A DNA stretch of 64,000 nt from Minisyncoccota bacterium (GTDB taxonomy: Bacteria; Patescibacteriota; Minisyncoccia; Phycocordibacterales; UBA9973), in assembly GCA_041662525.1 (NCBI GenBank), contig JBAZSF010000004.1, positions 1,190 to 65,189 on the forward strand, in the 5' to 3' direction. Numbering within the stretch: the first letter of the stretch is position 1; each line of letters starts with the position of its first letter. A program made the position numbers and the translations under genes. This document shows positions 8,079-60,636 of the stretch, in pieces. The notes beneath the pieces were generated by a model. It ran no database searches and had not been told where the DNA came from. It was given only the letters and a program-made list of their open reading frames with translations.

Positions 8079-9863
8079 TTGTCCTATTTTTATATGGAAA
8101 AAGACTATTCAAATTTGCACATTAGATTGGTGCTTAAATATTATTGGCAGGTAATAAAGAATTATAGAATATCTTTTTTTTGTGTTGTTTTTTTTACAAT
8201 ATTTTTTTCTATTTTAGACATTTATATACCACTTCAGTTTTTAAAACTTTGGGATGTATTAAGCACAAATAACTTTGCAATTATTTCAACTGCTAAATCA
8301 ATAATTATTTTAATTTTGATATTAGGATTAACTCGTTGGTTTTTTAGTAGATCTTCTGGATTTTGTTTATCTTATTTTGAGGCTGGAGTTATGGCAGGTC
8401 TTAGAGAGCAAGCTTTTTCTTATATGATTGGTCATTCTCATTCTTTTTTTGCAAATAATTTTGCAGGATCATTAACTAGAAAAATAAATAAATATGCTGG
8501 TGCTTTTGAGAGATTAACTGACAAAATGGCTGCTGATGGATTACCTCTTTTAGTCCGTGGTATTGGTACATTTTTTGCTATTTATTCTTTAGTTCCGAAA
8601 TATGCTTACATTTTAGGAATATTTTGTTTAATTTTTTTATTAACCGCTTTTATTTATATTCGATTTAAAATTAAATATGATGTGCTTTCTGCTTTGGCTG
8701 ATACAAAAACCACTGGGGTTTTAGCTGATGCCATTGGTAACCATTCTTCAATTCAGATTTTTACGGGTCATCTGTATGAAGAAAATCGTACTAGAGAAAC
8801 GATCCAAAAACAACGCAAAGCAACCGTTTTTAATTGGTATTTATGGGAAGGGCTCAATGCTATCCAAGGATTTTACTCAGTCATTATAGGGTTTATTATT
8901 TTTTGGGTTGCGATTGATGATTGGAGACTTTCTCTAGTTACGCTACCTTTTATAGTATTACTTCAAAGTTATTTAGTACGTTTAATAGATAGTCTATGGA
9001 GTTTTGGGGGGATAGTCCGTACTTTTTATAATAGTTTTGCTGATGCTCAAGAAATGGCTCTTGTTTTAAATACACCATATGAGATTAGCGATAAAGTGGA
9101 AAAAGTGGCTAAAAATATAAAAGGAGAAGTTGTCTTTAATAATGTAACTTATTTTTACAAAAATAATAATAATAAAGTATTAGATAATTTTTCTCTAACC
9201 ATAATGCCTGGACAAAAAATAGCCATTGTTGGTTCTTCTGGCGCTGGTAAGACGACTCTGGTTCGTCTTTTAATGAGATTGTTTAATACAAGTTTGGGTG
9301 AGATTGCTATTGACGGAATTGATATTAGTAAAATTTCTCAAGAAAATCTCCGGGAACAAATAGCTTTTGTTCCGCAAGATCCAGTTCTCTTTCATCGTAC
9401 TTTGATGGAAAATATACGTTATGGTAGAAGAAGTGCTACAGATGAAGAAGTTTTAAAAGCTGCAACGCTTGCGCATTGTGATGAGTTTATTGATTCTTTG
9501 CCATTTCGTTATGAGACATATGTAGGAGAGCGAGGGATAAAGCTCTCAGGTGGAGAACGTCAAAGAGTGGCTATTGCTCGCGCAATAATTAAAAATGCGC
9601 CGATTCTTATTTTAGATGAAGCAACCTCTTCGCTTGATTCCCACTCTGAATCTTTAATTCAAGATGCTCTCGCAAAACTTATTGATGGTAAAACTACTAT
9701 TGTCATCGCCCATCGACTTTCCACCATTAGACAAATGGATAGGATTATCGTTTTAGAGAAGGGGAAAATTGTCGAGGATGGAGTTCACGAAGAACTTATA
9801 AATAAAAAAGATGGATTTTATAAAAAATTATGGGATCTTCAGGCAGGAGGATTTTTAGATTAA
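8079..9863 (+). CDS. ABC exporter, fused permease plus ATP-binding domains (MsbA/lipid-A-exporter-like)
   Basis: Six TM segments at the N-terminus. Walker A GSSGAGKTT, signature LSGGERQRVAIARA, Walker B ILILDEATS. Confidence 0.88.
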   Translation: MSYFYMEKDYSNLHIRLVLKYYWQVIKNYRISFFCVVFFTIFFSILDIYIPLQFLKLWDVLSTNNFAIISTAKSIIILILILGLTRWFFSRSSGFCLSYFEAGVMAGLREQAFSYMIGHSHSFFANNFAGSLTRKINKYAGAFERLTDKMAADGLPLLVRGIGTFFAIYSLVPKYAYILGIFCLIFLLTAFIYIRFKIKYDVLSALADTKTTGVLADAIGNHSSIQIFTGHLYEENRTRETIQKQRKATVFNWYLWEGLNAIQGFYSVIIGFIIFWVAIDDWRLSLVTLPFIVLLQSYLVRLIDSLWSFGGIVRTFYNSFADAQEMALVLNTPYEISDKVEKVAKNIKGEVVFNNVTYFYKNNNNKVLDNFSLTIMPGQKIAIVGSSGAGKTTLVRLLMRLFNTSLGEIAIDGIDISKISQENLREQIAFVPQDPVLFHRTLMENIRYGRRSATDEEVLKAATLAHCDEFIDSLPFRYETYVGERGIKLSGGERQRVAIARAIIKNAPILILDEATSSLDSHSESLIQDALAKLIDGKTTIVIAHRLSTIRQMDRIIVLEKGKIVEDGVHEELINKKDGFYKKLWDLQAGGFLD

Positions 9864-11712: not shown

Positions 11713-11860
11713 TAAAAAAATCTAAAATAAACTTTTTCCGGTACGGATTTTTCGAAGCTTGAAAAATCTCTTCGAGCCTGAGGCCCTCAGAGCCGAAGGC
11801 CTGAAATTCTCGGCTCGACAGCCTCGAAACCCCTCCAAAAGCTTATTTTAGATTTTTTTA
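11713..11860 (+). mobile_element. MITE-like element, copy 1, with ~25-bp AT-rich terminal inverted repeats and a GC-rich structured core
   Basis: Left TIR taaaaaaatctaaaataaacttttt and right TIR caaaagcttattttagattttttta are near-perfect reverse complements. The core (ggtacggatttttcgaagcttgaaaaatct … ttctcggctcgacagcctcgaaacccct) recurs at 48961-49078. Inserted immediately after the lepA stop. Confidence 0.65.
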
Positions 11861-13438: not shown

Positions 13439-14788
13439 ATGACCAAGCATTGGATCAAAAATTTTGATCAGTTGGCTACGACTGAAAATAGGAAAAATGC
13501 GTTAAAAATAGTAGAAGCTGGTTTTGATGCTATAAATACAGAGGAAGTAATAAAAAACAAGATAAAACTTGAAGATAATATTTTATTTATTAATAACGAA
13601 AGTTTCGATTTAAATAAATTCAAAAACATAAAAGTTGTTGGTTTTGGTAAAGATTCCATGGATGGCGCCTTAGCAATTGAGAAAATTTTAGGTTCTAAGA
13701 TAAAGGAAGGTGCTGTCATCGGAATTACTAAAGTAGATTGCACACACATTGAAACTTTTACAGGTACACATCCTAGGCCAAGCGAGGTAAATGTTACTGC
13801 AGGAAAAAAGATATATGAAATGATTAAAGATTCTAATACTGATGATTTGATTATTGTTCTTGTTTCTGGTGGAGGATCATCTCTTTTGTGTTACCCTGAG
13901 AGTGAAAATACAGAAGGTTCAAAACTCTATGATGCATTTTTGGGATCTGGTAAAACAATCATTGAGATGAATACTATTAGAAAACATTTGTCTCTCTTGA
14001 AAGGGGGTGGTTTAGCAAAGTTAGCTTACCCAGCTACCGTTATCGGTCTTATTTTTTCTGATGTTCCCGGAAATGATTTTGAGGATGTTGCCTCTGGGGC
14101 AACTTATAAGGATGAAACCACTATAGATGATGCGAAAAAAATTATTACCGAGAATAATTTAGGAGAATTTGATTTGATTGAAACTCCCAAAGAAGATAAA
14201 TATTTTGAAAAAGTTCATAATTTTGTTTTAGTTTCAAACAAAACTGCAGTGGAAGCAATGGCGAAAAAAGCGGAAGAATTTAATTTAGAAACTAATATTG
14301 TTTCAACTGAATTATATGATGAAATAAAAGAAGCGCTTAAAAAAATATTTTCCAGCAACAAAACCAATGAAGGATTTTCTCAGGTCCTCGGTTCTCCGGG
14401 TCCCTATCCCGGCCAGACCATTCAAAAACCCTTCATTGGTTTTGTTAAACTTGCAGCTGGTGAGCCAAGTATTGAAGTCACCAAAGAAGGAAGCAAGGGG
14501 GGTAGGAATTTACATATGGGATTAGAAGCTATAAAAATGAAATTAGTGGATGATGATTCTGTTTTTATAGCTTTTGCTTCAGATGGTATGGACAATAGCG
14601 ATGTGGCTGGAGCGATAATAGATAAAGATACTTTAGATAAAGTCGAAAAACTTGGTTTGGATGTTGATGATTATATAGAAAGATTTGATTCTTATGATTT
14701 TTTTCAAAAAACTGGGGATGTGATTATTACTGGACCTACTGGCGCGAATGTTTCTGATTTGATGATTCTTTTAACTAAGAAAAATTAA
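13439..14788 (+). CDS. Glycerate 2-kinase (MOFRL/DUF4147 family)
   Basis: …LVSGGGSSLL… and …LKGGGLAKLA… motifs characteristic of MOFRL-family glycerate kinases. Confidence 0.72.
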   Translation: MTKHWIKNFDQLATTENRKNALKIVEAGFDAINTEEVIKNKIKLEDNILFINNESFDLNKFKNIKVVGFGKDSMDGALAIEKILGSKIKEGAVIGITKVDCTHIETFTGTHPRPSEVNVTAGKKIYEMIKDSNTDDLIIVLVSGGGSSLLCYPESENTEGSKLYDAFLGSGKTIIEMNTIRKHLSLLKGGGLAKLAYPATVIGLIFSDVPGNDFEDVASGATYKDETTIDDAKKIITENNLGEFDLIETPKEDKYFEKVHNFVLVSNKTAVEAMAKKAEEFNLETNIVSTELYDEIKEALKKIFSSNKTNEGFSQVLGSPGPYPGQTIQKPFIGFVKLAAGEPSIEVTKEGSKGGRNLHMGLEAIKMKLVDDDSVFIAFASDGMDNSDVAGAIIDKDTLDKVEKLGLDVDDYIERFDSYDFFQKTGDVIITGPTGANVSDLMILLTKKN

Positions 14789-20199: not shown

Positions 20200-20201
20200 C
20201 T

Positions 20202-20237
20202 AAAAACAAAACCCGCTTAAGCGGGTTTTGTTTTTAG
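20202..20237. terminator. Bidirectional Rho-independent terminator
   Basis: aaaacaaaacccgc-ttaa-gcgggttttgtttt is a perfect hairpin with A- and T-tracts, between the + tRNA-Phe and the minus hsp20 stop. Confidence 0.85.
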
Positions 20238-23737: not shown

Positions 23738-24943
23738 TTAGAGCTTTAGATTACCAGTTGCTTTTACGTCATCTAATTTAGGAACTCTCTTTTTATTTTT
23801 TATATAATTTAAATATCCAGCGATACCGATCATTATAGAATTATCTCCCATAAGTTCTTTTGTGGGAAATAAGATTTTTATTTTTTTTCCGCCAGAGGCG
23901 GATCCGCCTAGGGCGGAGATTTCATTCTGTAAATGTTTATTAGCCACGACTCCTCCAGCAACGATAAGAGTTTTTATATTATATTTTTCTACAGCTTTTT
24001 TTGTTTTGTAAGTTAAACATTCGATAGCGGCGTTTTCAAATTCTAAAGCAATTTGTGCTTTTGTTTTTTGGTTGATTTTTTTGATACCACCTAAATCTCT
24101 TATCAAATACAAAACTGCTGTTTTGAGTCCAGAAAAAGAAAAATTAAAATCTTTAGTATATATCATTGGACGGGGGAGAGCTAAAGAAAAACTAATCTTT
24201 TTGGGGTTGCGTTCACAGGAGAAGCGAGAAACTCGTGCGGACTCAGCGCACATAATTTTCTGTTGAAAATTTGCTATGCTCGGCTCGCCAGCCTGCGCAA
24301 TGCTTCGCTCGCACGAGTTTCTCGCTTCTCCTGCCAATTTTGAAATCTGTGGTCCACCAGGATAAGGTAGATCAAGCATTCTGGCCACTTTATCGAAAGC
24401 TTCACCGACGGCATCGTCGAGTGTTTCCCCGATAATTTCATAATTCATAAATTTGTTAGAAAGTACTAATTGGGTGTGCCCGCCTGATACGAGCAACATC
24501 AGTATAGGTGTTTTTAATTTCTCTATTTTAAAAGTTCCCCTGCCTTTTCCAAAAACAGAAAGGATGTGTCCTTCCATATGGTTGACTGGTACTAAGGGTA
24601 CTTTCCATTTTTGCGAGAGCTCTTTGGCAAAAACGATCCCAGTCCAAAGAGACATTTCAAGTCCTGGACCATGAGTCACCATTATTGCGTCTATTGGTTT
24701 TTTATTTTTACTTAACTTAACTTTTTTCAAGCAGGCTTCTAATAAAATAGGCAGATTTTTTTCATGTTCCAGTTTTGCCAGTTTTGGAAAAACTCCGCCA
24801 TAGGGGATGTGAACATTGATTTGAGAATTTGAGCTGTTGGCTAAAACTTTAAAAGAAGCATTTGTAATGCCTCCTTTAGCTTCCATTATACTTATTGCTG
24901 TATCGTCGCAGGAAGTTTCGATGCTTAAAATTCTTATTGTCAT
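23738..24943 (-). CDS. tsaD: tRNA N6-adenosine threonylcarbamoyltransferase TsaD (Kae1/Gcp family)
   Basis: ILSIETSCDDTAISI N-terminus, …HMEGHIL… metal-binding motif, …FSFSGLKTAV…. Carries a ~40-aa in-frame insertion encoded by a GC-rich palindrome at 24216-24333. Confidence 0.88.
   Translation of the reverse strand: MTIRILSIETSCDDTAISIMEAKGGITNASFKVLANSSNSQINVHIPYGGVFPKLAKLEHEKNLPILLEACLKKVKLSKNKKPIDAIMVTHGPGLEMSLWTGIVFAKELSQKWKVPLVPVNHMEGHILSVFGKGRGTFKIEKLKTPILMLLVSGGHTQLVLSNKFMNYEIIGETLDDAVGEAFDKVARMLDLPYPGGPQISKLAGEARNSCERSIAQAGEPSIANFQQKIMCAESARVSRFSCERNPKKISFSLALPRPMIYTKDFNFSFSGLKTAVLYLIRDLGGIKKINQKTKAQIALEFENAAIECLTYKTKKAVEKYNIKTLIVAGGVVANKHLQNEISALGGSASGGKKIKILFPTKELMGDNSIMIGIAGYLNYIKNKKRVPKLDDVKATGNLKL
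24216..24333. repeat. GC-rich palindromic element inserted in-frame in tsaD
   Basis: Perfect 24-bp inverted repeats caggagaagcgagaaactcgtgcg / cgcacgagtttctcgcttctcctg flank a 70-bp core. The core contains ctcggctcgccagcct, a 15/16 match to the MITE core ctcggctcgacagcct. Confidence 0.7.
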
Positions 24944-29875: not shown

Positions 29876-29954
29876 GATTACTATTATACACTAGGTGTCA
29901 AATCTTTTAAAATAAAAAAAAGACGTCGGTATTCCATCCAATGGAATACCGACG

Positions 29955-30170
29955 TTAAAGAGAATGCATTATTACCACAGGTTCATTGCATATAAGGCAA
30001 GTTTTACCCGTTTTTATGAGAGATGTCTCGTAACAATTATGAGGTGGAAATTCCAATTTCCTCATACATGAACAACAGTGAGCGTAAAATCTCTCATTGT
30101 AAGAACGAATTGTTTGAGTGTCTGAACAACGAGCGCACTTGTTTTCCTCGTTCATAACCCCTCCTTTCAA
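29955..30170 (-). CDS. Small Cys-rich (zinc-ribbon-like) protein immediately downstream of ftsZ
   Basis: CxxC…CCxC…C…CxxC pattern in about 66-71 aa. Moderately GC-rich. The start is uncertain (MKGGVMNEEN…). Confidence 0.35.
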   Translation of the reverse strand: MKGGVMNEENKCARCSDTQTIRSYNERFYAHCCSCMRKLEFPPHNCYETSLIKTGKTCLICNEPVVIMHSL

Positions 30171-33792: not shown

Positions 33793-33795
33793 TTT

Positions 33796-33836
33796 TTAGG
33801 TGTTGGACACCGAGATTCCAGGTGTCCAACACCTAA
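33796..33836. terminator. Perfect 16-bp-arm palindrome between greA and lysS (terminator or protein-binding site)
   Basis: ttaggtgttggacacc-gagattcca-ggtgtccaacacctaa. Confidence 0.55.
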
Positions 33837-33853
33837 GAAAATAAATAATTATA

Positions 33854-36325: not shown

Positions 36326-36400
36326 TCTATATATAAACATATAATTTTTACTTTGTCTAGAGGCTTTAAATTAGTATTTAAAGTTATTCACAGGAGAAGT
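36326..36400 (-). promoter_or_regulatory. Promoter/leader module, copy A (duplicated upstream of two adjacent minus-strand genes)
   Basis: ~70-bp segment (…aacatataattttta-ctttgtctagaggc-tttaaattagtatttaaagttattcacagga) homologous to 36706-36775. Contains the conserved CCYCTAGACAWAG box with a TCTAGA core. Confidence 0.5.
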
Positions 36401-36663: not shown

Positions 36664-36705
36664 AGCTTATCTCCTTTCATTTTAAGTATGGAATTTCTTT
36701 TTTAC

Positions 36706-36775
36706 ATCTAAACATATAATTTTTGCTATGTCTAGGGGCATTTAGTCAATATAAAGAGTTATCCACAGGGGAGGG
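36706..36775 (-). promoter_or_regulatory. Promoter/leader module, copy B
   Basis: Homologous to 36326-36400. In transcript sense it contains a TTGACT -35-like hexamer and the conserved CCCCTAGACATAG box. Confidence 0.5.
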
Positions 36776-47126: not shown

Positions 47127-48179
47127 TTACTCTTCAATTTTTGGTTTTTCCACTTCGAGAAGGGCTAGCTCGGGGGAGGATCCGGCTATGCGGAGGACGT
47201 CTTTGTCTATTTTTTTAAGTTCTTTATTTGAAGCGTTGTAATGATTCACGACTGTCCCTAAGGCATTACCGAGCTTGTTGTGGTATTCGTCATAAGATTT
47301 TAAATGCTTGCCTAGGTCTTCCACTTTTTTAATTATTTCCTTGGCTGATTCTTCTATTTGGAGAGCTTTGAGTCCTTGCAGGACAGTCTGTAAATATGCG
47401 AGGAAGGAAGTGGGACTCGTGATGATGACTTTATATTTTCCAGCGGCGCGTTGGATTAGATTTTCATTTTCACTGTCATTTATGTTTACCGCTCCGACTT
47501 TATTGGTAAGTAAGTCGTAATAAATGGCTTCATGGGGGATAAACATAAAAGCAAAGTCGGTGGTGCCACGGGTGGGCTGGATGTATTTGGCTGTTTCGGT
47601 AATGCGATTTTTTAAATCATTCACAAAAATTGTTTCTAGCTTTTTCTTCTCTGCACCGTCTCGCTCTTCTACCATTTTATTATAATTTTCTAGTGAGAAT
47701 TTTGAATCTATCGGAATGATTTTATCTTTGACAAAGACGACTGCATCCACTATCGTGCCATCAGGAAAAGGGTATTGCATTTGATAGCTTCCAGGAGGAA
47801 GCACATTTTTCAAAACTGTTTCTAAATAATATTCACCTAAAATTCCTCTTTGTTTTGGATTTTTTAAAATATTTTCCAAGCTTTGGAGCTGATCTGCGAA
47901 AGAAATGACTTGTTTATTTGTCTCGTCTAGGCGAGTGAGTCTTTCTGTTACATCACGGATTATTTTATTAGATTCACTTGAGTGAAATTGCAAGCTTTCT
48001 CGTACTTGTTTATGTGATTCACCGATTTTACTATCTACAGTTCTAGAGAGTTCATTTATTTGAGTTAGAATTAGACTTAATCCTGTGTCATCTTTTTTTT
48101 CTTCTTTTTTCCCATTCAAAAGAAAGTAAACAATTAATCCTCCGCCAATTATTCCTAATATAATCCAAAGAATTTCCAT
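47127..48179 (-). CDS. rmuC: DNA recombination protein RmuC
   Basis: N-terminal TM, long coiled coil, C-terminal RmuC nuclease-like domain (…TTDFAFMFIPHEAIYYDLL…). Confidence 0.72.
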   Translation of the reverse strand: MEILWIILGIIGGGLIVYFLLNGKKEEKKDDTGLSLILTQINELSRTVDSKIGESHKQVRESLQFHSSESNKIIRDVTERLTRLDETNKQVISFADQLQSLENILKNPKQRGILGEYYLETVLKNVLPPGSYQMQYPFPDGTIVDAVVFVKDKIIPIDSKFSLENYNKMVEERDGAEKKKLETIFVNDLKNRITETAKYIQPTRGTTDFAFMFIPHEAIYYDLLTNKVGAVNINDSENENLIQRAAGKYKVIITSPTSFLAYLQTVLQGLKALQIEESAKEIIKKVEDLGKHLKSYDEYHNKLGNALGTVVNHYNASNKELKKIDKDVLRIAGSSPELALLEVEKPKIEE

Positions 48180-48194
48180 ATATTTATTTTAAAA

Positions 48195-48926
48195 TTATTT
48201 ATTTAAATAATGTTTCAAAGTATAAATCCAATCTTCGTCTATGCCGTCACCATTTAGCTTTTGATCTAAAAGCCATTGCAAGTAACCCCTGTCTGTCTTT
48301 ACCACTTCTTCGATTCTTTTGCCATTATGTTTACCGAATTTAAAAGTATGTAAAAGTGAAGGATGGGAAGAAATTTCTATCATTTTATTTATTATTTCTT
48401 CTTCAGTAAGTTCTCTTCCTTCCTCTGTCAGGATCTTCGACATTTTATTTTTTAGTCTTTCAAAAAGTTTTTCCAAGACTAAAACATCTCCCATAGCATC
48501 ATGAGCCGTTGCTTCTACTTCTATCTCTAATAGATAACGCAAGTATTGCAGGTTATATTTTTCTATTTTTTCTTCTTTGTCTAAATATCTCACTAGTCGT
48601 AAGGTGCAAATGAAATTGGCAGGGAAAATATCTTCTTTTTTTATGATAGCTAAGTCAAAGGAGGCATTGTGAGCTATGACAACAGAATCTTTAGCTTCAA
48701 AAAGTTTTTTAATTGTTGCTTGGTCAGTGCTTTCTTTGAAGGTAGGCTTTTCAGCCACCATTTTGTTGGTAATGTGGTGCACCGCTGAGGCTTCTGGGGG
48801 GATTTTTATTTCAGGTTTATAAAGACCCATAAAAATTCCGTCATTACTTTTATAAGCAATCTGAACCAAAAAATCTTTCTCTGTATTACCTGTAGTTTCC
48901 GTGTCAAAAAATATTAATTTAGACAT
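48195..48926 (-). CDS. DEDDh 3'-5' exonuclease (DnaQ/epsilon-like) with a C-terminal extension
   Basis: Exo I FFDTETTG, Exo II …AHNASFDL…, Exo III …HDAMGDV…. Confidence 0.8.
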   Translation of the reverse strand: MSKLIFFDTETTGNTEKDFLVQIAYKSNDGIFMGLYKPEIKIPPEASAVHHITNKMVAEKPTFKESTDQATIKKLFEAKDSVVIAHNASFDLAIIKKEDIFPANFICTLRLVRYLDKEEKIEKYNLQYLRYLLEIEVEATAHDAMGDVLVLEKLFERLKNKMSKILTEEGRELTEEEIINKMIEISSHPSLLHTFKFGKHNGKRIEEVVKTDRGYLQWLLDQKLNGDGIDEDWIYTLKHYLNK

Positions 48927-48960
48927 AGTGCTATTTTAGCATATTTTTGATATAATTTAT

Positions 48961-49078
48961 CCAGATTTTTAAAATATCAATTTTTCTTCGGTACAGATTT
49001 TTTGAAGCTTAAAAAATCTTGAAGTTCTCGGCTCGACAGCCTCGAAACCCCTGCAAAAAATTATATTTTTAAAATCTA
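48961..49078 (+). mobile_element. MITE-like element, copy 2
   Basis: TIRs cagatttttaaaatatcaattttt / aaaaaattatatttttaaaatctag. Same core as copy 1 but lacking its 37-bp GC-rich segment. A compensatory C-G to T-A change in the agattttt[c/t]gaagctt[g/a]aaaaatct hairpin. Confidence 0.65.
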
Positions 49079-49082
49079 GATT

Positions 49083-50150: not shown

Positions 50151-51054
50151 AAAATTAAAGTTAAGCAAAAAGTTAGTTACGCACAATGGTTCTTTTCATG
50201 CAGATGATATTTTTTCAGCAGCAATTTTTTTAATTTTGCTTGAAAAAAAAGGAGAGACTTTTGATATAATTCGCACTAGAGACGAAAAGATCATTGAGAC
50301 AGGTGACTATATTTTTGATATTGGAGGAATGTATAATCCTGAAGAAAACAAATTTGATCATCATCAGGTAGGTGGAGCAGGTAAGAGATCAAGCGGTATT
50401 GAGTATGCTGCATGCGGTTTGGTTTGGAAAAAATTCGGGATAGACCTTTGTGGATCTCAAAAAGTGGCTGATTTAGTAGATGGAATTTTAATTGCACCAA
50501 TTGATGCAGGAGATAACGGTTTTGATTTAGTAGAAAATAAATATGAAACTTCACCTTATTTTATTCAACATGCTTTTAATGCGATGCGACCAACTTGGAA
50601 AGAAGTAGATTTAAATGAAGATGAAATGTTTTTGAAATGTGTAGTGATGGCAAAAGAAATTTTAATGCGAGAAATAATTCAAGCACAAGATGCTCTTTTG
50701 GCGGAAGAAATGGTGTTTTCAATTTATGAAAAGACTGAGGATAAGAAAATTATTGTTTTAGATGAAAATTATCCATTTGAGTATACTTTAAATAATTTTC
50801 CTGAACCATTGTATGTGATTTACCCGAGAAAGAGTGATGGATTCTGGGGAATCAGAGCGGTACGGAAAGATCCAAAAACTTTTTTAAACAGGAAAAATTT
50901 CCCCAAACTCTGGGCAGGACTCAGGGATGAAGAGCTTCAGAATGTTACAGGAGTCAGAGATGCAATATTTTGTCATCGTGGATTATTTCTAGCCGTGGCA
51001 AAGTCAAAAGAAGGGGCTATCAAATTGGCGCAAATTGCGGTAGAATCACTATAG
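50125..51054 (+). CDS. UPF0160/MYG1-family metal-dependent hydrolase
   Basis: N-terminal HNGSFHADD motif and about 300 aa. Confidence 0.75.
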   Translation: MKNFMIKNEKLKLSKKLVTHNGSFHADDIFSAAIFLILLEKKGETFDIIRTRDEKIIETGDYIFDIGGMYNPEENKFDHHQVGGAGKRSSGIEYAACGLVWKKFGIDLCGSQKVADLVDGILIAPIDAGDNGFDLVENKYETSPYFIQHAFNAMRPTWKEVDLNEDEMFLKCVVMAKEILMREIIQAQDALLAEEMVFSIYEKTEDKKIIVLDENYPFEYTLNNFPEPLYVIYPRKSDGFWGIRAVRKDPKTFLNRKNFPKLWAGLRDEELQNVTGVRDAIFCHRGLFLAVAKSKEGAIKLAQIAVESL

Positions 51055-51097
51055 GCTCATAAAATATCAATTGATATTTTATGAGCCATATAAATAT

Positions 51098-52111
51098 ATG
51101 GCATTTATTGACGAAATTAAAATAGAGGCATCAGCAGGACGCGGTGGAGACGGTGTCGTGCGTTGGCGTCAAGAGAAATTTATACCAAAAGGTGGGCCTG
51201 CAGGCGGAGATGCCGGACGTGGTGGGGATTTCTATGTTATTGCTGTGCGTGATATCAATATTCTTTCAAAATATAAAGCAAAAAAAAGCTTCAAAGCTTT
51301 CCGTGGAGAGGACGGTGGAAATAAAAGTTTGCATGGCGCAAATGGTAAAGATTTTTATCTTGAATTACCAATTGGCTCTATCGTTACAAATATAGAGACT
51401 GATGAAGTTTGGCAACTCACAGAAGAAGGGCAGAAATTTATGATTTTAAGAGGTGGTTATGGTGGTTTTGGTAATGAACATTTTAAAAGCTCTACTAACA
51501 CAACTCCCCAAGAATCAAAAGAAGGGCAGGAGGGTGAAAAGGGAAATTTTAAAATAGAGCTAGAGATTTTTGCAGATGTAGGATTTGTCGGTCTTCCGAA
51601 TGCAGGGAAAACTTCTTTATTGAATTCCTTAACTAATGCAGAAGCGAGAGTCGGGGATTATGCTTTTACTACTCTCGATCCAAATTTGGGAGAATTTTAC
51701 GGTTATATTATTGCTGATATTCCAGGAATCATAGAAGGAGCATCAGAGGGTAAGGGTCTCGGTGTAAAATTCTTGCGACATATTAAACGTACAAAAATGC
51801 TCGCGCACCTAGTGTCTTTTGAGAATCTATCTAAGGGTTCGACTGGTATGATGAAGGTTTATAAAGAAATTCGCAAAGAGTTAGAAAAATATGATAAAAA
51901 ATTAGGTTTAGGTGAAAACGGATTGTCTTCTAAAAAAGAAATATTAATTTTAACAAAAAGTGATTTTATCGATGATAGTAAAATTATTGAAAGGGAAATA
52001 AAAAAATTCGAAAAACTTGGAAAAAAAGTTTTTGTCCTGTCTTTGTTTGATGATAAAATGGTAAAAAAATTCAGAGATGGGTTGGTAAAAATTTTAAAGT
52101 CTTCATCATAA
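51098..52111 (+). CDS. obg: GTPase Obg
   Basis: Obg fold with Gly-rich repeats (GRGGDGVV…GGPAGGDAGRGGD). G1 GLPNAGKTS, G3 DIPG. The longest ORF starts at 51071. Confidence 0.9.
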   Translation: MAFIDEIKIEASAGRGGDGVVRWRQEKFIPKGGPAGGDAGRGGDFYVIAVRDINILSKYKAKKSFKAFRGEDGGNKSLHGANGKDFYLELPIGSIVTNIETDEVWQLTEEGQKFMILRGGYGGFGNEHFKSSTNTTPQESKEGQEGEKGNFKIELEIFADVGFVGLPNAGKTSLLNSLTNAEARVGDYAFTTLDPNLGEFYGYIIADIPGIIEGASEGKGLGVKFLRHIKRTKMLAHLVSFENLSKGSTGMMKVYKEIRKELEKYDKKLGLGENGLSSKKEILILTKSDFIDDSKIIEREIKKFEKLGKKVFVLSLFDDKMVKKFRDGLVKILKSSS

Positions 52112-52115
52112 TTAT

Positions 52116-52146
52116 AAAAAGCCGGACAATCTGTCCGGCTTTTTAT
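52116..52146. terminator. Bidirectional Rho-independent terminator
   Basis: aaaaagccggacaatctgtccggcttttt. Confidence 0.85.
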
Positions 52147-52157
52147 AATTTGTCTAA

Positions 52158-53948
52158 TTAACAACCTACTCCCACTTTCCAAAATTCTATAGCTTGAAGA
52201 ATTAAGGAATTTAAAACATTGCCGATCTTCCATTGACCTATATAAGATAAAATTTCCGCATTACCAATAACACCATCGAGATTTGTGTCAGCTGTAGTTT
52301 GACAAGCAGGGCCGACCGCTGTCACGGTAACTATTGAAGCATTACTAGTTACTGCGTCTGAAGTCGCAGTGATGTTTGTCGTACCAGCAGCTACTGCTGT
52401 TACGAGACCCGTAGCACTCACTGTAGCTACTGCTGTATCAGAAGAATTCCAAGTCATCGCAGGTTGAGTCGCTAGAGCTACACTATTTTGATCTAAAGCA
52501 GAAGCTGATAGTTGAGAAGTACCTGCGACTACTATACTCGCTGTTGTTGGTGTGACTGAAATTGAAGTGAGGACGGGATTTGGGGTAATAGCCACCACAT
52601 TGACAGTCCTGGTAACCGACGTAGCTGGATTACCAGCGGCGTCAGAAACGTTGTAGGTCAAAATGTAACTCCCCAAAGTGGCTGTATCTACTGTACCGGT
52701 GACAATTATGTTGGCAGTGATATTGCCATCCACATCATCAGAAGCAGTGGCTCCTGGATCAGTGAAGACACTTGCTTGAACCACATCCACTGGGTTAGCT
52801 CCAAGTAATATAATGACTGGGAGAGTGGTGTCAGCAGGTGGTGAAACAGCTGTAATAATTATTGTGACTGGAGATGAAACTGGCGCTGATACCATGTCAT
52901 CAACAATTACATTAAAATTATAAGTTCCTGCTATGCTTGGGGTCCATGAAAATGTTCCCATGGCATTAATTGATGATCCAATAGGCGCATTCGCGTCAAG
53001 CGTATACATTAGCATTCCCTGATTTGGATTAGTGGCAATTACATCAAATGTTACTGCTTGCCCAACTGTTCCATTTTGTTGAGGTATTGGGGTTATGACT
53101 GGAGATGCTGCAAAGCTAGCGCTGATCGTATGAGCAATAGTAACGTTGGTGAAGGTGTAAGTCGCAACTGCGCCAACTGAAACTCCGTCCACCAAAACAT
53201 CCGCTACTACGAAATTAGTATTCGGAGTTATGGTGTAAGCTCTATTTGCTCCATGATTAACCGACGTCACTCCAAGAGGAGAAATTGTTCCGTTGGCGCC
53301 CGTCGAAGATGTAATGTTGTAAGTATTAATCGCGAAACTTGCATTGATCGTGTGAGTAGTTGTTACATTATTAAATGTATAATTTAAAACTGCTCCGACT
53401 GAAGATCCGTCAACTAAAACATTAGCTATATGATAACCGGTGTTTGGTGTAATTGTATAACTTTGACTTGATCCGGAGTTAACAGGGGTTGTTCCAGCTG
53501 GAGTAACTGTCCCTCCCGCGGTACTTGCAACTGAAACTATATTATGAGTTGTTGCTGTAGATGATATTACCAAATTTACGTTTGTTAACGGTTCAACAAC
53601 AAATGATCTGGTTACGTTTGTACTAAATGCTCCAAATGTCGCGTTTAATTGAATTTGATCTCCAGCAACGGTACAGATATTTAGGTTGCTTGTGTCGATC
53701 TGGTAAAATCCTCCCAAAGAGGTTACGACTGATAGTGCGGGGGATCCATTTGTAACGTCAGTAAGCGTGACAGTGGCATTATCAGTCGCTATACCATTAA
53801 ATGTAACTGTCCCATAAAATGTATTTAGCGGACATCCTTGAGCCGCAATAGCCGGGGTAGGCGAGATGAAAGCAAATTGCATTATCGCGGAAGCTACTAT
53901 CAAACTTACTATTTTTTTTATTGTATTTTTTGAGATATTTATGTTCAT
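52158..53948 (-). CDS. Secreted surface protein with Big_2 Ig-like domains and a Cys-flanked dockerin-like C-terminal module
   Basis: Signal peptide. Big_2-type segment (VLTSISVTPTTASIVVAGTSQLSA…). C-terminal CQTTADTNLDGVIGNAEILSYIGQWKIGNVLNSLILQAIEFWKVGVGC, almost identical to the C-terminus of the 60637-62598 protein. Confidence 0.6.
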   Translation of the reverse strand: MNINISKNTIKKIVSLIVASAIMQFAFISPTPAIAAQGCPLNTFYGTVTFNGIATDNATVTLTDVTNGSPALSVVTSLGGFYQIDTSNLNICTVAGDQIQLNATFGAFSTNVTRSFVVEPLTNVNLVISSTATTHNIVSVASTAGGTVTPAGTTPVNSGSSQSYTITPNTGYHIANVLVDGSSVGAVLNYTFNNVTTTHTINASFAINTYNITSSTGANGTISPLGVTSVNHGANRAYTITPNTNFVVADVLVDGVSVGAVATYTFTNVTIAHTISASFAASPVITPIPQQNGTVGQAVTFDVIATNPNQGMLMYTLDANAPIGSSINAMGTFSWTPSIAGTYNFNVIVDDMVSAPVSSPVTIIITAVSPPADTTLPVIILLGANPVDVVQASVFTDPGATASDDVDGNITANIIVTGTVDTATLGSYILTYNVSDAAGNPATSVTRTVNVVAITPNPVLTSISVTPTTASIVVAGTSQLSASALDQNSVALATQPAMTWNSSDTAVATVSATGLVTAVAAGTTNITATSDAVTSNASIVTVTAVGPACQTTADTNLDGVIGNAEILSYIGQWKIGNVLNSLILQAIEFWKVGVGC

Positions 53949-53999
53949 TTTTTTTATTAATTTTTTAATTGGTAAATATTTTTCGACTTTAAAATATTT

Positions 54000-56900
54000 T
54001 TATGGTCGGTGAATGAATATTCCATCACCTTGATTGATAATGAAATCATTCAATGGAAACCCGATTATATGGCTACTATATTGCTGTATTGCCGAGTCCC
54101 ATTTGGTAACAACATCAGTACCGGCAAGTGAAGCGCCAAAAGTTTCTGCCGTGGTTGATATTGCGCTGACCCATCCAAGAAGATTCCAGCCAGTTATGGG
54201 ATTATAAGTGGCTTGAGCTGGAGATCCTTGGAATACAAATGGACTAGCTGCTGGAACATTCACAAAGAAACCATCACCTATAGTAAGATTAAAGTTATTC
54301 AATGGAAATCCAACTATATGACTGCTGTATTTCTGTGTCAGAGAATCCCATTTTACAACGACCGTTGCACCGACTGTTTGTCCAAAGTTTTCCGCTGTTA
54401 ATGTCATAGGAGTCCCCTGAGCATCAAGCGGAGTTGCGGGTAGTGTAACTAAATTCCATCCATCGTTTAGTGAAAGCATATAACTTCCAGGAGGAAGATC
54501 TCCCGCTGTTACATTGGCAGTGTTGGAATATGTTGAATTAGCAGTTGCGGTAGGGAAGCCAATTGAGGGATCCGCGTATATTTGTGTATCGCCAACAACA
54601 TTATTGGCAAAAACTCTATAATAATATGTCTGCCCCGGTTGGATAGAATTATCCAAGTATGCGGTTGCATTAACCGGAGATGTGTAAGTTATCAATCCGC
54701 TCGTAAATCCAGAGTTGGTAGCTTTTTGAATTGTAAATCCAGTTTCACTTAATGAATTATCATTCCAATTTAACTGCACTGCATTAGAAGCAAAATTTGC
54801 TGTTAAATTTGAAGGAGCTTCCGGTGGAGTGGCGAATAAAACTGCATGCATCATATCCATTTCTTCATGCGCTAAGAGATGGCAGTGATAAACATATTCC
54901 CATCCATAGTTTACATAATGATTGTTTACTGTGACATTGTTTCCATTAGGATCTTTGAGTCCGCCAGGTGGTAGCATTAACGGCGCACCCTCAGGCAATG
55001 TGGGATCAATCAAGCGCACACTATTGGGAACTGGGAATGGTTGAGTTGGAGCAAATGCTCTGAAAGCAACTATGGTGTCTTGTAAAGGATTCACTCTAAA
55101 TGTTTCCTTCCACCCGAGTTCGTTGGCATCAGGCGGTCTTATAGCACCATCCCAGGCGACTCTGTTTATAAGCTGAGCATTAAACAGGTGGGTATGGATG
55201 GTATGAGTGTCTACACCATTGTGTGTAATTTTCCAGATTTGGGTGCCGTCATCAAGAGATCCTATCGGTGTTCCGTATACAGAGCCTTTGACGATTTCAA
55301 CTGGCGGAGAGGCAAAACCGGAAAGAATGAGTAATTGTCTGTTAACTTGTGATGCTGGAAGTTCAAGCCCGAGAAATCCACTCATTCTTCCGTATTCCGA
55401 ATCGAATGCTTCGCCCTGCTCATCTTGGATAGCTTTTGTTTGGAAAGGTATAGTGACATTATCACCGGCGAGAGTATTGAATGTTTTTGATGCGTCATGA
55501 ATACTGGCATAATTATCTGTTGTAATATTAGAATTATAAGCTGAATTATATGCAGTTTGCGGTATGATAACTTCATCCTGAGACACTTCGAAAACTCCGC
55601 GTTTTGTACCAGGTCCTTTGGCAAATACCGCTTCTAGTGCGCCTAGATTGTATGCAGTCGCTGGAGTGGTAGGCGCCACTCTGATTTGCATTACAGTTCT
55701 TATATTAGGACCGTAACCGGCTTGGGTTGTCGGAGCTCCGCCTATGTCTGTCAAATCCGGGTCTCCGGTATGATAATCATAACGAGCATCAGCGGCTGGA
55801 AATGCTGCCGGAGCATCGTTGTATAAAATAATTGTTTTGCCCGCGTACTGTGAAAAATCAACAATTACATCCGCTCGTTCAGCCGTACCAAGGATAAGAG
55901 TTCCTTTGTTAACTAATCCCATGTCAAAGTTTGTCGGGTCCATATTCCAGTCAACTGGTTGATTGGGCAATACTACCGGTGCTGGCAAGAATCCTCCTTC
56001 GGTTCCAATTTGAATAAATGTCGGACCTGCGGTTGTCGGATCAGGCACCCCTCCTTCTCGTCCATCTTTTGGCCAATCTTCCGGGAATCCGGGAGTAGAG
56101 ACAGCTGGTACCATTTTTATTTCCGTGTTTGTTCTGCCATCAGGGGTAATAATTGTCGGATCTGCAACATAGAACTGTAAATTAAGGAAACGATCATCTG
56201 CGGCATTTAAAATTCTAAATCTGTACGCTTTTGGGTCTACGTTCATATACGGATACACTGTTCCATTGACAATGGGAGTGTCCATAAAAGCTTCCATCGC
56301 CATAGACTCATTTGGTGTTCCAGGCATTTGAGCTGGTTCCCATGGTGCACCTACTGGATCATAATATGGATTTGGAAGCGGGCCTTGAGTTACCCCAGTT
56401 GTTGGTGGCCAAAACCATGGACCATAGTGCCATCTCCCAAAAGCATTCATTCCGCTGGGATCCGCAGGATTTTGGTTTGGCATATAAACGTGTGGGTACC
56501 AAAGATCGCCATCTTGGGGAACTCCTGGTACTGCTGAATCCCACGTTGGATCTTGCATCGCAAGAGTACTGGTATCAATAAATGTTCTATCTTGAATAAT
56601 TAACGGGATACCAATATCCGGAAGAACTTTCACCAACCCAGGGTTAACTCCGGAATCATTTGTTCCATTAATTAAATCTTGTTCTACTTGGTCGGTAATT
56701 AAATATCCAGCCGCTTCTCCTGCATAAACATTTAAACGGGTAATTCCAAAAGAATGATCATGATAGAACATCAATCTAGCACTTTGTTGGTTGTTATAGT
56801 AAAAAGTAAGTGAACCATCTCCAGGGTTATTTGTTGCTCCTGGGGTTGGCGCTGTAATTTGACCGACTGTGTCTGCGACTACACTGCCATTTACAAACCA

Positions 56901-57923
56901 CATGTCGGGAACATACTCAACACTCACACCTTTCGGATAAGATGTAGTTTCACCCGCCGGAGTAGTCCATTGATGAGGAGTTCCATCACTTATCCATGGA
57001 ACAAATCCTCCATGAAGGTGCAATGTTGCCCTATTTTCTTTGTACTCTTCTTTCATTCCAGGCATTCCCGGCATATCCAATGGACCCATACCGGCACCCA
57101 TTACTGATTTATCAACTGGCAAAAAAAGTTCTCCACCTGCTCCAGTTGGAAGTTTATTTGTAAATTTAATTCTTACAGCACGATCACGATTAGAAAGAAT
57201 TAGCGGACCAAGATAATGAATCGGATCCGGCGCAATCGTATTCTGGCTGTTGCCATCAGTACCTGAATTTACCTGTACATAACCGCGTAATTTTGTTGCC
57301 GGAAGATCGGAATGCATCTTTTCCGTATATTCCCTTAATTCAATTTCATAATAATCAGCTCCCGGATAAGTAATTGTATCCGGATGCGCTACTGGGATAT
57401 ATTGTCCAAGATTGTTGGCATTAGTTGAACCTAATCCTGGCAAAGAATCCACGAATTTTTTTATTCCTCCAGTTAATGTCGAGTATCCACTCCCACCATT
57501 GGTGATTGTAATTTCAGTAATGACACCGGCAGTTGTTGAAGCTGTTGCATTTGCTCCGGTTCCAGTAAGACTTGTGATTGCAACTATTGGAGAAATATAA
57601 TTTGTTCCTCCGTTAATAATTGATATTGCGGTAACAGCCCCATTAGTAATTGTTGCTGTTGCGATAGCTCCTGTAGCTCCGCTTGTTGTGTTTGAGTCTG
57701 TGATTGTTACAACAGTCGGTTCACCGACTGGCATAGGACTATTTGCCCAGTTTGGATAAGGACCAAAATAATGTGGAATCTCTCCGGTGTTGGGAATCGT
57801 CATCGCCATAGCAACTGTCGATTTTGCATATTTGATATTTTCAATCGGCAAAGCAACAAAAGAAAAAATAAAAGACAAAATTATAAAAATATTTCCTAAA
57901 TTTCTTAAATAATTATTTTTCAT
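54000..57923 (-). CDS. Giant secreted multicopper oxidase (laccase/CotA-like, three cupredoxin domains) with FN3 and tandem C-terminal repeat domains
   Basis: Signal peptide. All four MCO copper-ligand motifs are present: HLHGG, YHDHS, HTIHTHLF, HCHLLAHEEMDMM. An FN3-like segment and two about 90-aa C-terminal repeats (…KWDS…QYSSHI(V/I)GFPLN…GDG(F/I)F…). Confidence 0.75.
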   Translation of the reverse strand: MKNNYLRNLGNIFIILSFIFSFVALPIENIKYAKSTVAMAMTIPNTGEIPHYFGPYPNWANSPMPVGEPTVVTITDSNTTSGATGAIATATITNGAVTAISIINGGTNYISPIVAITSLTGTGANATASTTAGVITEITITNGGSGYSTLTGGIKKFVDSLPGLGSTNANNLGQYIPVAHPDTITYPGADYYEIELREYTEKMHSDLPATKLRGYVQVNSGTDGNSQNTIAPDPIHYLGPLILSNRDRAVRIKFTNKLPTGAGGELFLPVDKSVMGAGMGPLDMPGMPGMKEEYKENRATLHLHGGFVPWISDGTPHQWTTPAGETTSYPKGVSVEYVPDMWFVNGSVVADTVGQITAPTPGATNNPGDGSLTFYYNNQQSARLMFYHDHSFGITRLNVYAGEAAGYLITDQVEQDLINGTNDSGVNPGLVKVLPDIGIPLIIQDRTFIDTSTLAMQDPTWDSAVPGVPQDGDLWYPHVYMPNQNPADPSGMNAFGRWHYGPWFWPPTTGVTQGPLPNPYYDPVGAPWEPAQMPGTPNESMAMEAFMDTPIVNGTVYPYMNVDPKAYRFRILNAADDRFLNLQFYVADPTIITPDGRTNTEIKMVPAVSTPGFPEDWPKDGREGGVPDPTTAGPTFIQIGTEGGFLPAPVVLPNQPVDWNMDPTNFDMGLVNKGTLILGTAERADVIVDFSQYAGKTIILYNDAPAAFPAADARYDYHTGDPDLTDIGGAPTTQAGYGPNIRTVMQIRVAPTTPATAYNLGALEAVFAKGPGTKRGVFEVSQDEVIIPQTAYNSAYNSNITTDNYASIHDASKTFNTLAGDNVTIPFQTKAIQDEQGEAFDSEYGRMSGFLGLELPASQVNRQLLILSGFASPPVEIVKGSVYGTPIGSLDDGTQIWKITHNGVDTHTIHTHLFNAQLINRVAWDGAIRPPDANELGWKETFRVNPLQDTIVAFRAFAPTQPFPVPNSVRLIDPTLPEGAPLMLPPGGLKDPNGNNVTVNNHYVNYGWEYVYHCHLLAHEEMDMMHAVLFATPPEAPSNLTANFASNAVQLNWNDNSLSETGFTIQKATNSGFTSGLITYTSPVNATAYLDNSIQPGQTYYYRVFANNVVGDTQIYADPSIGFPTATANSTYSNTANVTAGDLPPGSYMLSLNDGWNLVTLPATPLDAQGTPMTLTAENFGQTVGATVVVKWDSLTQKYSSHIVGFPLNNFNLTIGDGFFVNVPAASPFVFQGSPAQATYNPITGWNLLGWVSAISTTAETFGASLAGTDVVTKWDSAIQQYSSHIIGFPLNDFIINQGDGIFIHRP

Positions 57924-58086
57924 ATATCTCTATATTAATTATTAATAATCGATTACTTTTTAGTATTAAAAAACTTACAAACTTAATAATAGTCAAACGA
58001 TAATAGCTGAAGTTAAATTTGACATTAAAGATTTTAAGGGCATTTTGATTTTTTAAAAAAATATTATTATTTCTGAGCAAAAAAAA

Positions 58087-58095
58087 GGGGGGGGG
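58087..58095. repeat. G9/C9 homopolymer in the MCO promoter region
   Basis: The only long G/C homopolymer seen in this AT-rich window. About 165 bp upstream of the MCO start, just downstream of the terminator of the preceding gene. Confidence 0.6.
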
Positions 58096-58114
58096 AGTCC
58101 TTGCTTAAAATAAC

Positions 58115-58146
58115 AAAAAACCGGAAGACTAGTCCGGTTTTTGTTA
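58115..58146. terminator. Rho-independent terminator after the PG-binding surface protein gene
   Basis: aaaaaaccggaagactagtccggtttttgtt. Confidence 0.8.
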
Positions 58147-58179
58147 TAACGTTTTTTTATAATTAAGACAGTTAATAAT

Positions 58180-60591: not shown

Positions 60592-60636
60592 ATTTTTTAT
60601 TTTATTATTTTTAATTTTGATAATTTTTCGACACTT

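Follow-up and report, generated by a model that had tools for sequence, protein, structure and literature searches.

Short palindromic repeats have been described in several groups of bacteria. Correia elements are cut by RNase III at their paired terminal inverted repeats (TIRs), carry regulatory sites and can invert, ERIC sequences alter mRNA decay, and the palindromic elements of Rickettsia (RPEs) insert in frame (PMC10969869). Here, a palindromic repeat family of Patescibacteria is described, starting from two copies in a 64,000-nucleotide stretch of contig JBAZSF010000004.1 (assembly GCA_041662525.1, a Minisyncoccota bacterium), which is referred to below as the window. Copy 1 follows lepA and copy 2 precedes yqeY. 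A first-pass annotation of the window had read them as a MITE-like family (MITE, miniature inverted-repeat transposable element). Correia, ERIC, REP/REPIN and RPE elements conserve either their ends or the whole element, whereas the Patescibacteria repeat has free ends and a fixed apex. Both loci are, with fair probability, copies of a MITE-type palindromic repeat of the Paceibacteria lineage that was moved through TIRs and of which the stem and the apex were afterwards retained.

Correia elements are similar to the Patescibacteria repeat in that they are non-coding palindromes of 100-160 bp, present in tens of copies at gene boundaries, with presence/absence polymorphism and inversion in situ. 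Their transcripts likewise contain a long paired stem, on which RNase III acts in Neisseria. However, their 26-bp TIRs are conserved between copies, their duplication is TA, and their interior varies and holds an IHF site, whereas the Patescibacteria repeat has variable ends, an invariant apex and, where a duplication is present, one of 7 bp, and it belongs to an unrelated clade of hosts. ERIC/IRU elements of Enterobacteria and Vibrio are imperfect palindromes of ~127 bp, highly conserved across species, intergenic and usually transcribed, with a known or suspected effect on mRNA fate and an unclear mode of spread. They are set apart by description, ERIC being conserved over its full length and the Patescibacteria repeat only at its apex, while its stem drifts with compensation. 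REP and REPIN elements are likewise short, strand-specific hairpin repeats that are kept vertically at orthologous intergenic sites and have a tetranucleotide at the foot of the hairpin, GTAG in REP and GTAC here. In REPINs, the arms are conserved REP units and the loop is variable, the reverse of the present arrangement; moreover, relatives of the window copies have TIRs and 7-bp duplications, and no RAYT (Y1 HUH) transposase domain was found in the open reading frames (ORFs) of the window. RPEs are likewise palindromic repeats of reduced genomes, and they can sit in frame inside essential genes, as does the probable relative of the family in tsaD described below. The two copies reported here are intergenic, RPE families do not share an invariant apex, and sequence similarity between the two is not expected.

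A conserved apex between variable arms

Across the family, the element measures 105-165 bp, with a median of 117 bp for the form without TIRs. Two AT-rich arms of ~25-40 bp each enclose an apex of ~62 nt that is nearly identical in all copies. The arms are semi-conserved beside the apex (CTTTTT.../...AAAAAG) and elsewhere copy-specific but mutually complementary. On the window minus strand, the apex reads 5'-GGGG-UUU-[Y-GA-GSNS-GNCG-SNSC-GA-R]-AAYUUCA-[GRAUUUUUU-AAGCUUC-AAAAAAUYY]-GUACC-3', two hairpins at a three-way junction, the first of which has ten stacked positions and a tandem G.A/A.G mismatch.

Both window copies were found where the first-pass annotation had placed them, and they have in common an identical GC-rich block of 28 nt, TTCTCGGCTCGACAGCCTCGAAACCCCT. 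The window contains this 28-mer exactly two times, on the plus strand in each case (11807-11834 and 49025-49052), and 0 of 100 shuffled sequences contained a match even when 3 mismatches were allowed. The copies also share GGTAC-R-GATTTTT-Y-GAAGCTT-R-AAAAATCT, and on both strands they fold far better than shuffled sequence (z -3.2 to -7.6). In the A.T hairpin, GGATTTTTC-GAAGCTT-GAAAAATCT of copy 1 corresponds to AGATTTTTT-GAAGCTT-AAAAAATCT of copy 2, so that C-G becomes T-A at the top of the stem. This swap, proposed earlier as compensatory, is real, and the same pair varies with pairing among 113 family members (U-A 97, C-G 9, A-U 1, G-C 1). The additional GC-rich segment of copy 1, previously given as 37 bp, measures 32 nt. 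GC-rich insertions unrelated to it occur at the same junction in two other loci (L007, L054) and in the A.T hairpin loop in a third (L012).

Both apex hairpins covary, in keeping with the selection on structure that had been proposed from the two copies. In an alignment of 113 distinct apex sequences, compared with 500 shuffles and with slid controls, 88.5% of the cells in the apex helices were paired (78.7% in shuffled alignments) and 201 cells showed double changes (64 in shuffles). None of the 500 shuffles reached the observed value, and the slid controls gave 12 or fewer. The GC hairpin stem GGCU/AGCC is replaced in other members by GCGC/GCGC, GCAC/GUGC, GUGC/GCAC or GGCC/GGCC, and one base pair of this hairpin switches from C-G to U-A or G-C (C-G 72, U-A 29, G-C 9). 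The tandem G.A/A.G is kept in 110 of the 113 sequences; it takes one register in 93 of them and another in 17, and the total length of the hairpin stays constant.

Between the 43 orthologous pairs in which both sites are occupied, identity is 0.745 in the flanks, which are mostly coding, 0.91 in the apex and 0.64 in the arms; between random pairs of copies it is 0.88 in the apex and 0.52 in the arms. The apex is therefore near-constant throughout the family, independently of orthology, while the arms drift faster than genes yet stay paired. Such constancy points either to selection on each copy or to homogenisation among copies with a constrained family consensus. The first-pass annotation had given the two copies shared TIRs of ~25 bp, but the conserved and selected part is the apex, and the ends vary. 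Each window copy does have AT-rich inverted arms of its own, as had been claimed; the arms are not shared, since they differ largely in sequence from each other and from those of other loci and agree only in being self-complementary.

A resemblance to the hammerhead ribozyme, suggested by the plus-strand reading CUGAAGU...GAAAC, was rejected, as the A9-equivalent position is U and the GAA pairs with UUC and covaries. Rfam hammerhead models matched neither copy.

Family size and host range

The palindromic repeat forms a dispersed family, as the first-pass annotation had supposed, and this family is confined to Patescibacteria of the Paceibacteria/Nomurabacteria type. When one genome per prokaryotic species was scanned with a 20-mer of the core, 74 loci were obtained, ~58 of them in low-GC (31-45%) metagenome-assembled genomes of Patescibacteria, labelled Nomurabacteria, Paceibacterota, Vogelbacteria, Taylorbacteria or Patescibacteria. 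The remaining matches, in high-GC genomes, sit inside coding sequence and were discarded as chance. A gapped pattern independent of the GC hairpin matched at least 120 metagenome contigs. In all, ~190 copies were collected, from ~30 species-level genomes and many metagenome contigs, and all of them are in low-GC Patescibacteria (Nomura-/Paceibacteria-type). More than 20 near-identical copies are found in MFTH01 (Nomurabacteria RIFCSPHIGHO2_01_FULL_37_25) alone. The window flanks are 70-87% identical to those of several Patescibacteria loci of the family, which indicates that the window comes from the same clade as those genomes.

In viral contigs, the apex was not found, and a 15-mer of the TIR gave 67 single matches, about chance level by estimate. 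No family of Rfam 15 matches either copy, even at E up to 10, where only noise far below the cut-offs was returned; the gathering-threshold matches in the window are 7 tRNAs. A literature search that included sequence strings returned no description of the palindromic repeat, and the family is apparently undescribed so far.

Mobility and site polymorphism

A 143-bp form of the element, found in MFTH01 and a few further genomes, ends in CTTTGAATTACGAAACTC ... GAGTTTCGTAATTCACGA, with TIRs of 14-18 bp and termini of the type (C)TTTGAATTACGAAACTC. Of 32 TIR-bearing copies, 13 are flanked at a fixed offset by 7-bp direct repeats that match exactly, as are none of 32 shifted controls. Several further TIR-bearing copies match the 7-bp repeat after a shift of 1 nt, and no shifted control (n=32) reaches 6/7. 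This TIR-bearing 143-bp subfamily has transposed recently, leaving 7-bp target-site duplications (TSDs). Its two tips differ in their last four bases (CTTT versus TCGT), and the apex lies between them in either orientation, which indicates that the interior inverts. Both tips and orientations can be seen, for example, on MFTH01 contigs at L004, L005, L012, L032, L039, L040, L045, L050, L065, L066 and others.

For copy 2 and for more than 10 further pairs, orthologous sites were found at which one genome has the element and the other lacks it. At the empty counterpart of the copy 2 site (L188), the yqeY leader reads TGGTAGAAT-16 nt-ATG, and L175, compared with L133, shows the same arrangement as at copy 2, with the element of L175 directly after the -10 box. 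The rsmH and obg sites are occupied in other genomes and empty or reduced in the window. MFTH01, too, has an element at the 3' site of lepA, a TIR-bearing copy that is oppositely oriented, and both orientations of the element occur among species at the rsmH site. Empty sites hold neither a palindrome nor arm-like sequence, so the arms arrive with the element. Two alternative origins of the arms, from a target that was already palindromic and from target flanks duplicated in inverted orientation, were rejected on the same ground and because the arms are unlike the flanks. An apparent match between arm and flank at the end of mraZ was set aside, as the segment is not orthologous.

The MITE interpretation of the first-pass annotation holds for these relatives, which include a TIR-bearing subfamily with 7-bp TSDs and with occupied and empty sites. 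It does not extend to the conserved TIRs expected of the window copies, nor to TSDs in the TIR-less class. The element is small by the MITE limit of ~300 bp, non-coding and multi-copy, with 2 copies (and 1-2 relatives) in the window. In line with the first-pass annotation, it encodes no transposase: neither copy contains an ORF, and a Pfam scan of 54 ORFs of the window detected no domain of a transposase, integrase, HUH enzyme or reverse transcriptase. A search of genomes and relatives for further copies and TSDs, suggested there, returned both, the TSDs in the TIR-bearing relatives; neither of the outcomes held to speak against the family, a lack of both or two copies carried in neighbouring mRNAs without conserved structure, was encountered.

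Two loci combine parts of the element with other sequences. At the yqeY site of L121 (4820-5075), a palindromic element has a different interior with a CTGGCGAAGCTTCGCCAG hairpin, and the element at L030 (1640-1760) begins with the same AAATTACGAAACTC terminus and has an unrelated GC-rich hairpin as its interior. Termini and apex therefore look like separable modules.

Folded strand and genomic context

The folded strand appears to be the window minus strand. The apex helices hold G.U pairs in 39 cells on the minus strand and in 5 on the plus strand, 21 of the 39 coming from a single terminal pair. In 112 of 113 sequences the apex folds more stably on the minus strand, the mean difference being 3.9 kcal/mol, and the conserved mismatch is purine-purine on this strand. 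Tandem G.A is a common stable motif, which U.C/C.U is not. An apparently strong wobble asymmetry in the arms (111 versus 48) was not retained as evidence, because it is concentrated in inner-arm positions that are shared by descent within subfamilies; the counts in the outer arms are 48 versus 38. Selection on read-through mRNA was rejected as the cause of the wobble asymmetry, which is equal whichever strand the neighbouring genes read.

Both window copies have the plus orientation in the sense of lepA, the divIC-like gene and yqeY, so the better-folding minus strand is antisense to those genes. RNA made by read-through of neighbouring genes therefore does not explain the structure. The repeat occupies the boundaries between genes. 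With MFTH01 excluded, neighbouring genes end on the GGTAC side in 89 cases and start there in 45, while the CCCC side has 69 ends and 70 starts. The median distance from the apex to the start codon is 34 nt on the CCCC side, which places the codon at the foot of the arm, and 57 nt on the opposite side. Where both neighbouring genes run in the same direction, the window-plus orientation agrees with the mRNA sense in 43 cases and opposes it in 23, and the plus orientation is on the G-rich strand in 93 versus 41. The -35-like TCGACA of the GC hairpin loop was rejected as part of a promoter, being absent from most family variants.

Proposed origin and possible roles of the element

On the favoured MITE-type account, the element would have spread as a non-autonomous DNA transposon whose TIRs, of the CTTTGAATTACGAAACTC type, were acted on in trans by a cut-and-paste, DDE-type enzyme encoded elsewhere. 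After insertion, TIRs and duplications would decay while the ~27-bp stem and the apex stay, giving the TIR-less form of the window. There would thus be a division of labour between short, dispensable TIRs that serve transposition and a stem-plus-apex module that persists. Such persistence would need either selection for single-strand folding or homogenisation among copies. The long stem could provide a passing transcript with an RNase III-type processing or boundary site, the role that we favour, and processing there would make an insertion harmless or useful in the gap that separates a stop codon from the following start, or downstream of a promoter and ahead of the start codon. The apex, in the weakest step of the scheme, might act as a strand-specific recognition module for a putative factor.

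Several results weigh against this account. Among 134 distinct TIR-less copies, the class to which the window copies belong, flanking direct repeats are not above the shifted control, and since the window copies have neither conserved TIRs nor TSDs, their mode of arrival has to be read from their relatives. No autonomous partner with matching TIRs was detected around any ORF in the window or in ~1.4 Mb of collected loci (L001-L194). A neutral, dead transposon copy would not show the observed constancy of the apex, and decay, which is absent from the apex, would be expected of a MITE that is purely selfish. The better-folding strand is antisense to the adjacent genes at both window copies and at about two-thirds of family sites, and no promoter-like hexamer is conserved in either arm on either strand; together these weaken a simple RNA account and keep a role of single-stranded DNA in play. 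Moreover, a terminator scan gave no intrinsic-terminator-like site at either copy, where the stems are long and AT-rich.

It could also be hypothesized that the element belongs to the host as a cis-acting structured RNA (operon punctuation, processing, a stability element or a small RNA gene), the burst in MFTH01 being a secondary capture between transposon ends. This host-owned RNA is the other serious rival, though we consider it rather unlikely. It would account for an apex that exceeds its flanks in identity at orthologous sites and is nearly as similar between unrelated copies, and for the occupation of the same sites (after ftsZ, after a dksA-like gene, before map, before rsmH) in 4-6 species. 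Covariation typical of functional RNAs, optional GC-rich hairpin insertions at one junction, and the gene polarity, with an excess of gene ends on the GGTAC side and start codons close on the CCCC side, point the same way. Yet the lack of any Rfam match and of a conserved promoter in either arm is against it, as is the fact that the strand with G.U pairs and tandem G.A is mostly antisense to the genes reading in, with a bias independent of neighbour orientation. The sites are also dispensable, being empty in close relatives, one site differs in orientation between species, and relatives carry target duplications. A broader idea, which we regard as unlikely, is that the apex with its tandem G.A represents a new class of strand-read motif, RNA or DNA, served by dedicated Paceibacteria machinery, with the MFTH01 ends as an occasional vehicle. 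If true, it would amount either to a new strand-specific mobilisation or maintenance of hairpin elements, with flip/flop like that of parvoviral inverted terminal repeats (ITRs), or to a new, widespread non-coding RNA that punctuates operons in reduced genomes.

A doubtful further explanation takes the T-shaped hairpin of one DNA strand as the substrate of an HUH nuclease, a tyrosine recombinase or a replication/repair factor, through which TIR-less copies would move or persist. IS200/IS605 ends and REP/RAYT are comparable cases, and parvoviral ITRs, integron attC sites and the CTX-phage attP have a long stem and two small hairpins structured on one strand, a likeness of shape only. The asymmetry of the apex follows the element and not the direction of the neighbouring genes, TIR-less copies lack target duplications, and orientation is biased relative to GC skew. 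The interior in both orientations between fixed tips is flip/flop-like, as in parvoviral ITRs, and a core-less perfect palindrome of the window (51054-51087) resembles a product of snap-back, template-switch repair. However, more than half of the minus-strand wobble cells stem from one terminal pair and the outer arms are symmetric, no HUH or recombinase gene occurs in the window or was seen beside copies, and the sole demonstrated transposition signature, TIRs with a 7-bp duplication, is of the double-strand, cut-and-paste type. Furthermore, it is mostly the C-rich strand that carries the fold; in textbook replication geometry, this strand is the template for leading-strand synthesis and the less exposed of the two. 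ITR, attC and attP are read by Rep, integrase or Xer at conserved sites at the stem base, whereas the stem base of the present element varies and none of these genes lies nearby; the attC cores (RYYYAAC / GTTRRRY) are absent from the variable, AT-rich stem bases, and the window has no integrase. The remaining view, that the two loci are chance look-alike intrinsic terminators or an assembly artefact and form no family, is refuted. Both copies do lie in intergenic spacers and have hairpins with A/T runs at the stem ends, but chance would not yield the identical 28-nt block (expectation zero), the ~190 copies come from independent assemblies, the terminator scan is empty at both copies, and the ordinary terminators of the window differ in having short GC-rich stems, as at 20200-20237.

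Features of the window and their surroundings

Table 1. Coordinates of the two copies, their parts and related palindromes in the window
Feature	Position	Strand	Description
Copy 1, whole palindrome	11713..11860	minus (strand with best fold)	Covariance model match at 11762-11845, minus strand, 46.6 bits, E 1.9e-11
Copy 1, left arm	11713..11739		TAAAAAAATCTAAAATAAACTTTT + TCC, the TCC being an internal loop
Copy 1, apex	11740..11833	minus	In plus-strand order: GGTAC; A.T hairpin 11745-11769; insertion; TGAAA; GC hairpin 11807-11828; ACCCC
Copy 1, GC-rich insertion	11770..11801		Imperfect palindrome of 32 nt, specific to copy 1, inserted at the junction of the two apex hairpins
Copy 1, GC hairpin	11807-11828		Plus-strand reading TTC-TC-GGCT-CGAC-AGCC-TC-GAA
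Copy 1, right arm	11834..11860		TCC loop + AAAAGCTTATTTTAGATTTTTTTA
Copy 1, inverted arms	11713-11736 / 11837-11860		24 nt, complementarity 96%
Copy 2, whole element	48961..49079	minus	Canonical form without insertion; covariance model match at 48977-49063, minus strand, 102.9 bits, E 1.7e-28
Copy 2, apex	48990..49051	minus	In plus-strand order: GGTAC 48990-48994; A.T hairpin 48995-49019; TGAAG; GC hairpin 49025-49046; ACCCC 49047-49051
Copy 2, inverted arms	~48961-48989 / 49052-49079
Core-less palindrome	51054..51087		Perfect, 34 bp, GGCTCATAAAATATCAATTGATATTTTATGAGCC; just before obg; arms of the family type, no apex
Probable distant relative	24216..24333	minus	Palindromic; perfect 24-nt arms, A.T hairpin and CTCGGCTCGCCAGCC hairpin; in tsaD (minus-strand gene 23738-24943)

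Copy 1 begins 4 nt after the lepA stop codon (11708) and is followed after 170 nt by a DivIC-like gene (12031). Copy 2 is placed between a -10-like box, TGATATAAT (48949-48957), and the yqeY start codon (49083), upstream of a divergent RNase_T-type exonuclease gene (minus strand, start 48926). The identities of LepA, the exonuclease and YqeY were obtained by Pfam scan. The exonuclease gene (RNase_T/ExoX-like) forms an operon with rmuC (47127-48926), and copy 2 lies just upstream of this operon. RmuC is said to limit inversion at short inverted repeats, but the proximity is probably a coincidence.

The core-less palindrome before obg may be a template-switch or excision remnant. L033 and L121 carry a full element at the orthologous site, which is empty in L188, and no second core-less palindrome of this kind was found in the collected loci. 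The palindrome in tsaD matches the family covariance model weakly (13.3 bits, E 0.24); with an interior that resembles the apex, it is a probable distant relative of the family. It is in frame and adds ~46 residues (query 209-254). None of the solved TsaD structures has this segment, and they align with the protein on both sides of it.

Other repeats of the window were also noted. A 22-nt inverted repeat, 95% complementary, with a GC-rich centre of 46 nt lies at 14357-14446 in a glycerate-kinase-like ORF (13439-14788). It was considered as a second in-frame insertion; this is not established, since an alignment to PDB 1x3l shows only ~12 extra residues. Within an ABC transporter gene (8079-9863), the plus strand at 8703-8805 gives a weak covariance match (13.8 bits, E 0.17; GGGGTT...AATTCAGATTTT...AAAATCGTAC), which is probably due to chance; an 18-nt inverted repeat is found nearby (8790-8807 / 8921-8938). 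A perfect 38-bp palindrome, CTAAAAACAAAACCCGCTT/AAGCGGGTTTTGTTTTTAG, at 20200-20237 between a tRNA-Phe gene (plus strand) and an hsp20 gene (minus strand) is of the ordinary bidirectional-terminator type of this genome, with similar ones at 52110-52150, 33793-33839 and 29923-29955. Upstream of mraZ, a 70-nt direct repeat with 79% identity is present at 36328-36397 and 36703-36772, 375 nt apart. Four large minus-strand genes at 52158-62598 encode surface proteins with Ig-like (Big_2), CHRD and peptidoglycan-binding domains. They contain repeats within and between genes, in units of 259-300 nt that are 84-96% identical, and 84-nt tandem units at 58417-58659.

Implications for Patescibacteria

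Patescibacteria, also known as the candidate phyla radiation (CPR), have tiny genomes, which are considered to contain few repeats and few known regulatory RNAs. The palindromic repeat is present in dozens of their species, with copy numbers that reach more than 20 in a genome of less than ~1 Mb, and its 62-nt motif is more conserved than the adjoining essential genes. For annotation, it calls for some care, as elements are found in 5' leaders and across stop and start codons, and a probable relative forms a translated part of TsaD. The repeat also offers a test case in which stem sequences diverge completely while pairing stays, and a marker of insertion polymorphism in CPR populations. Altogether, it is either the first well-defined MITE family of the CPR clade, or a new structured nucleic-acid motif with a function for the host or for the element itself.

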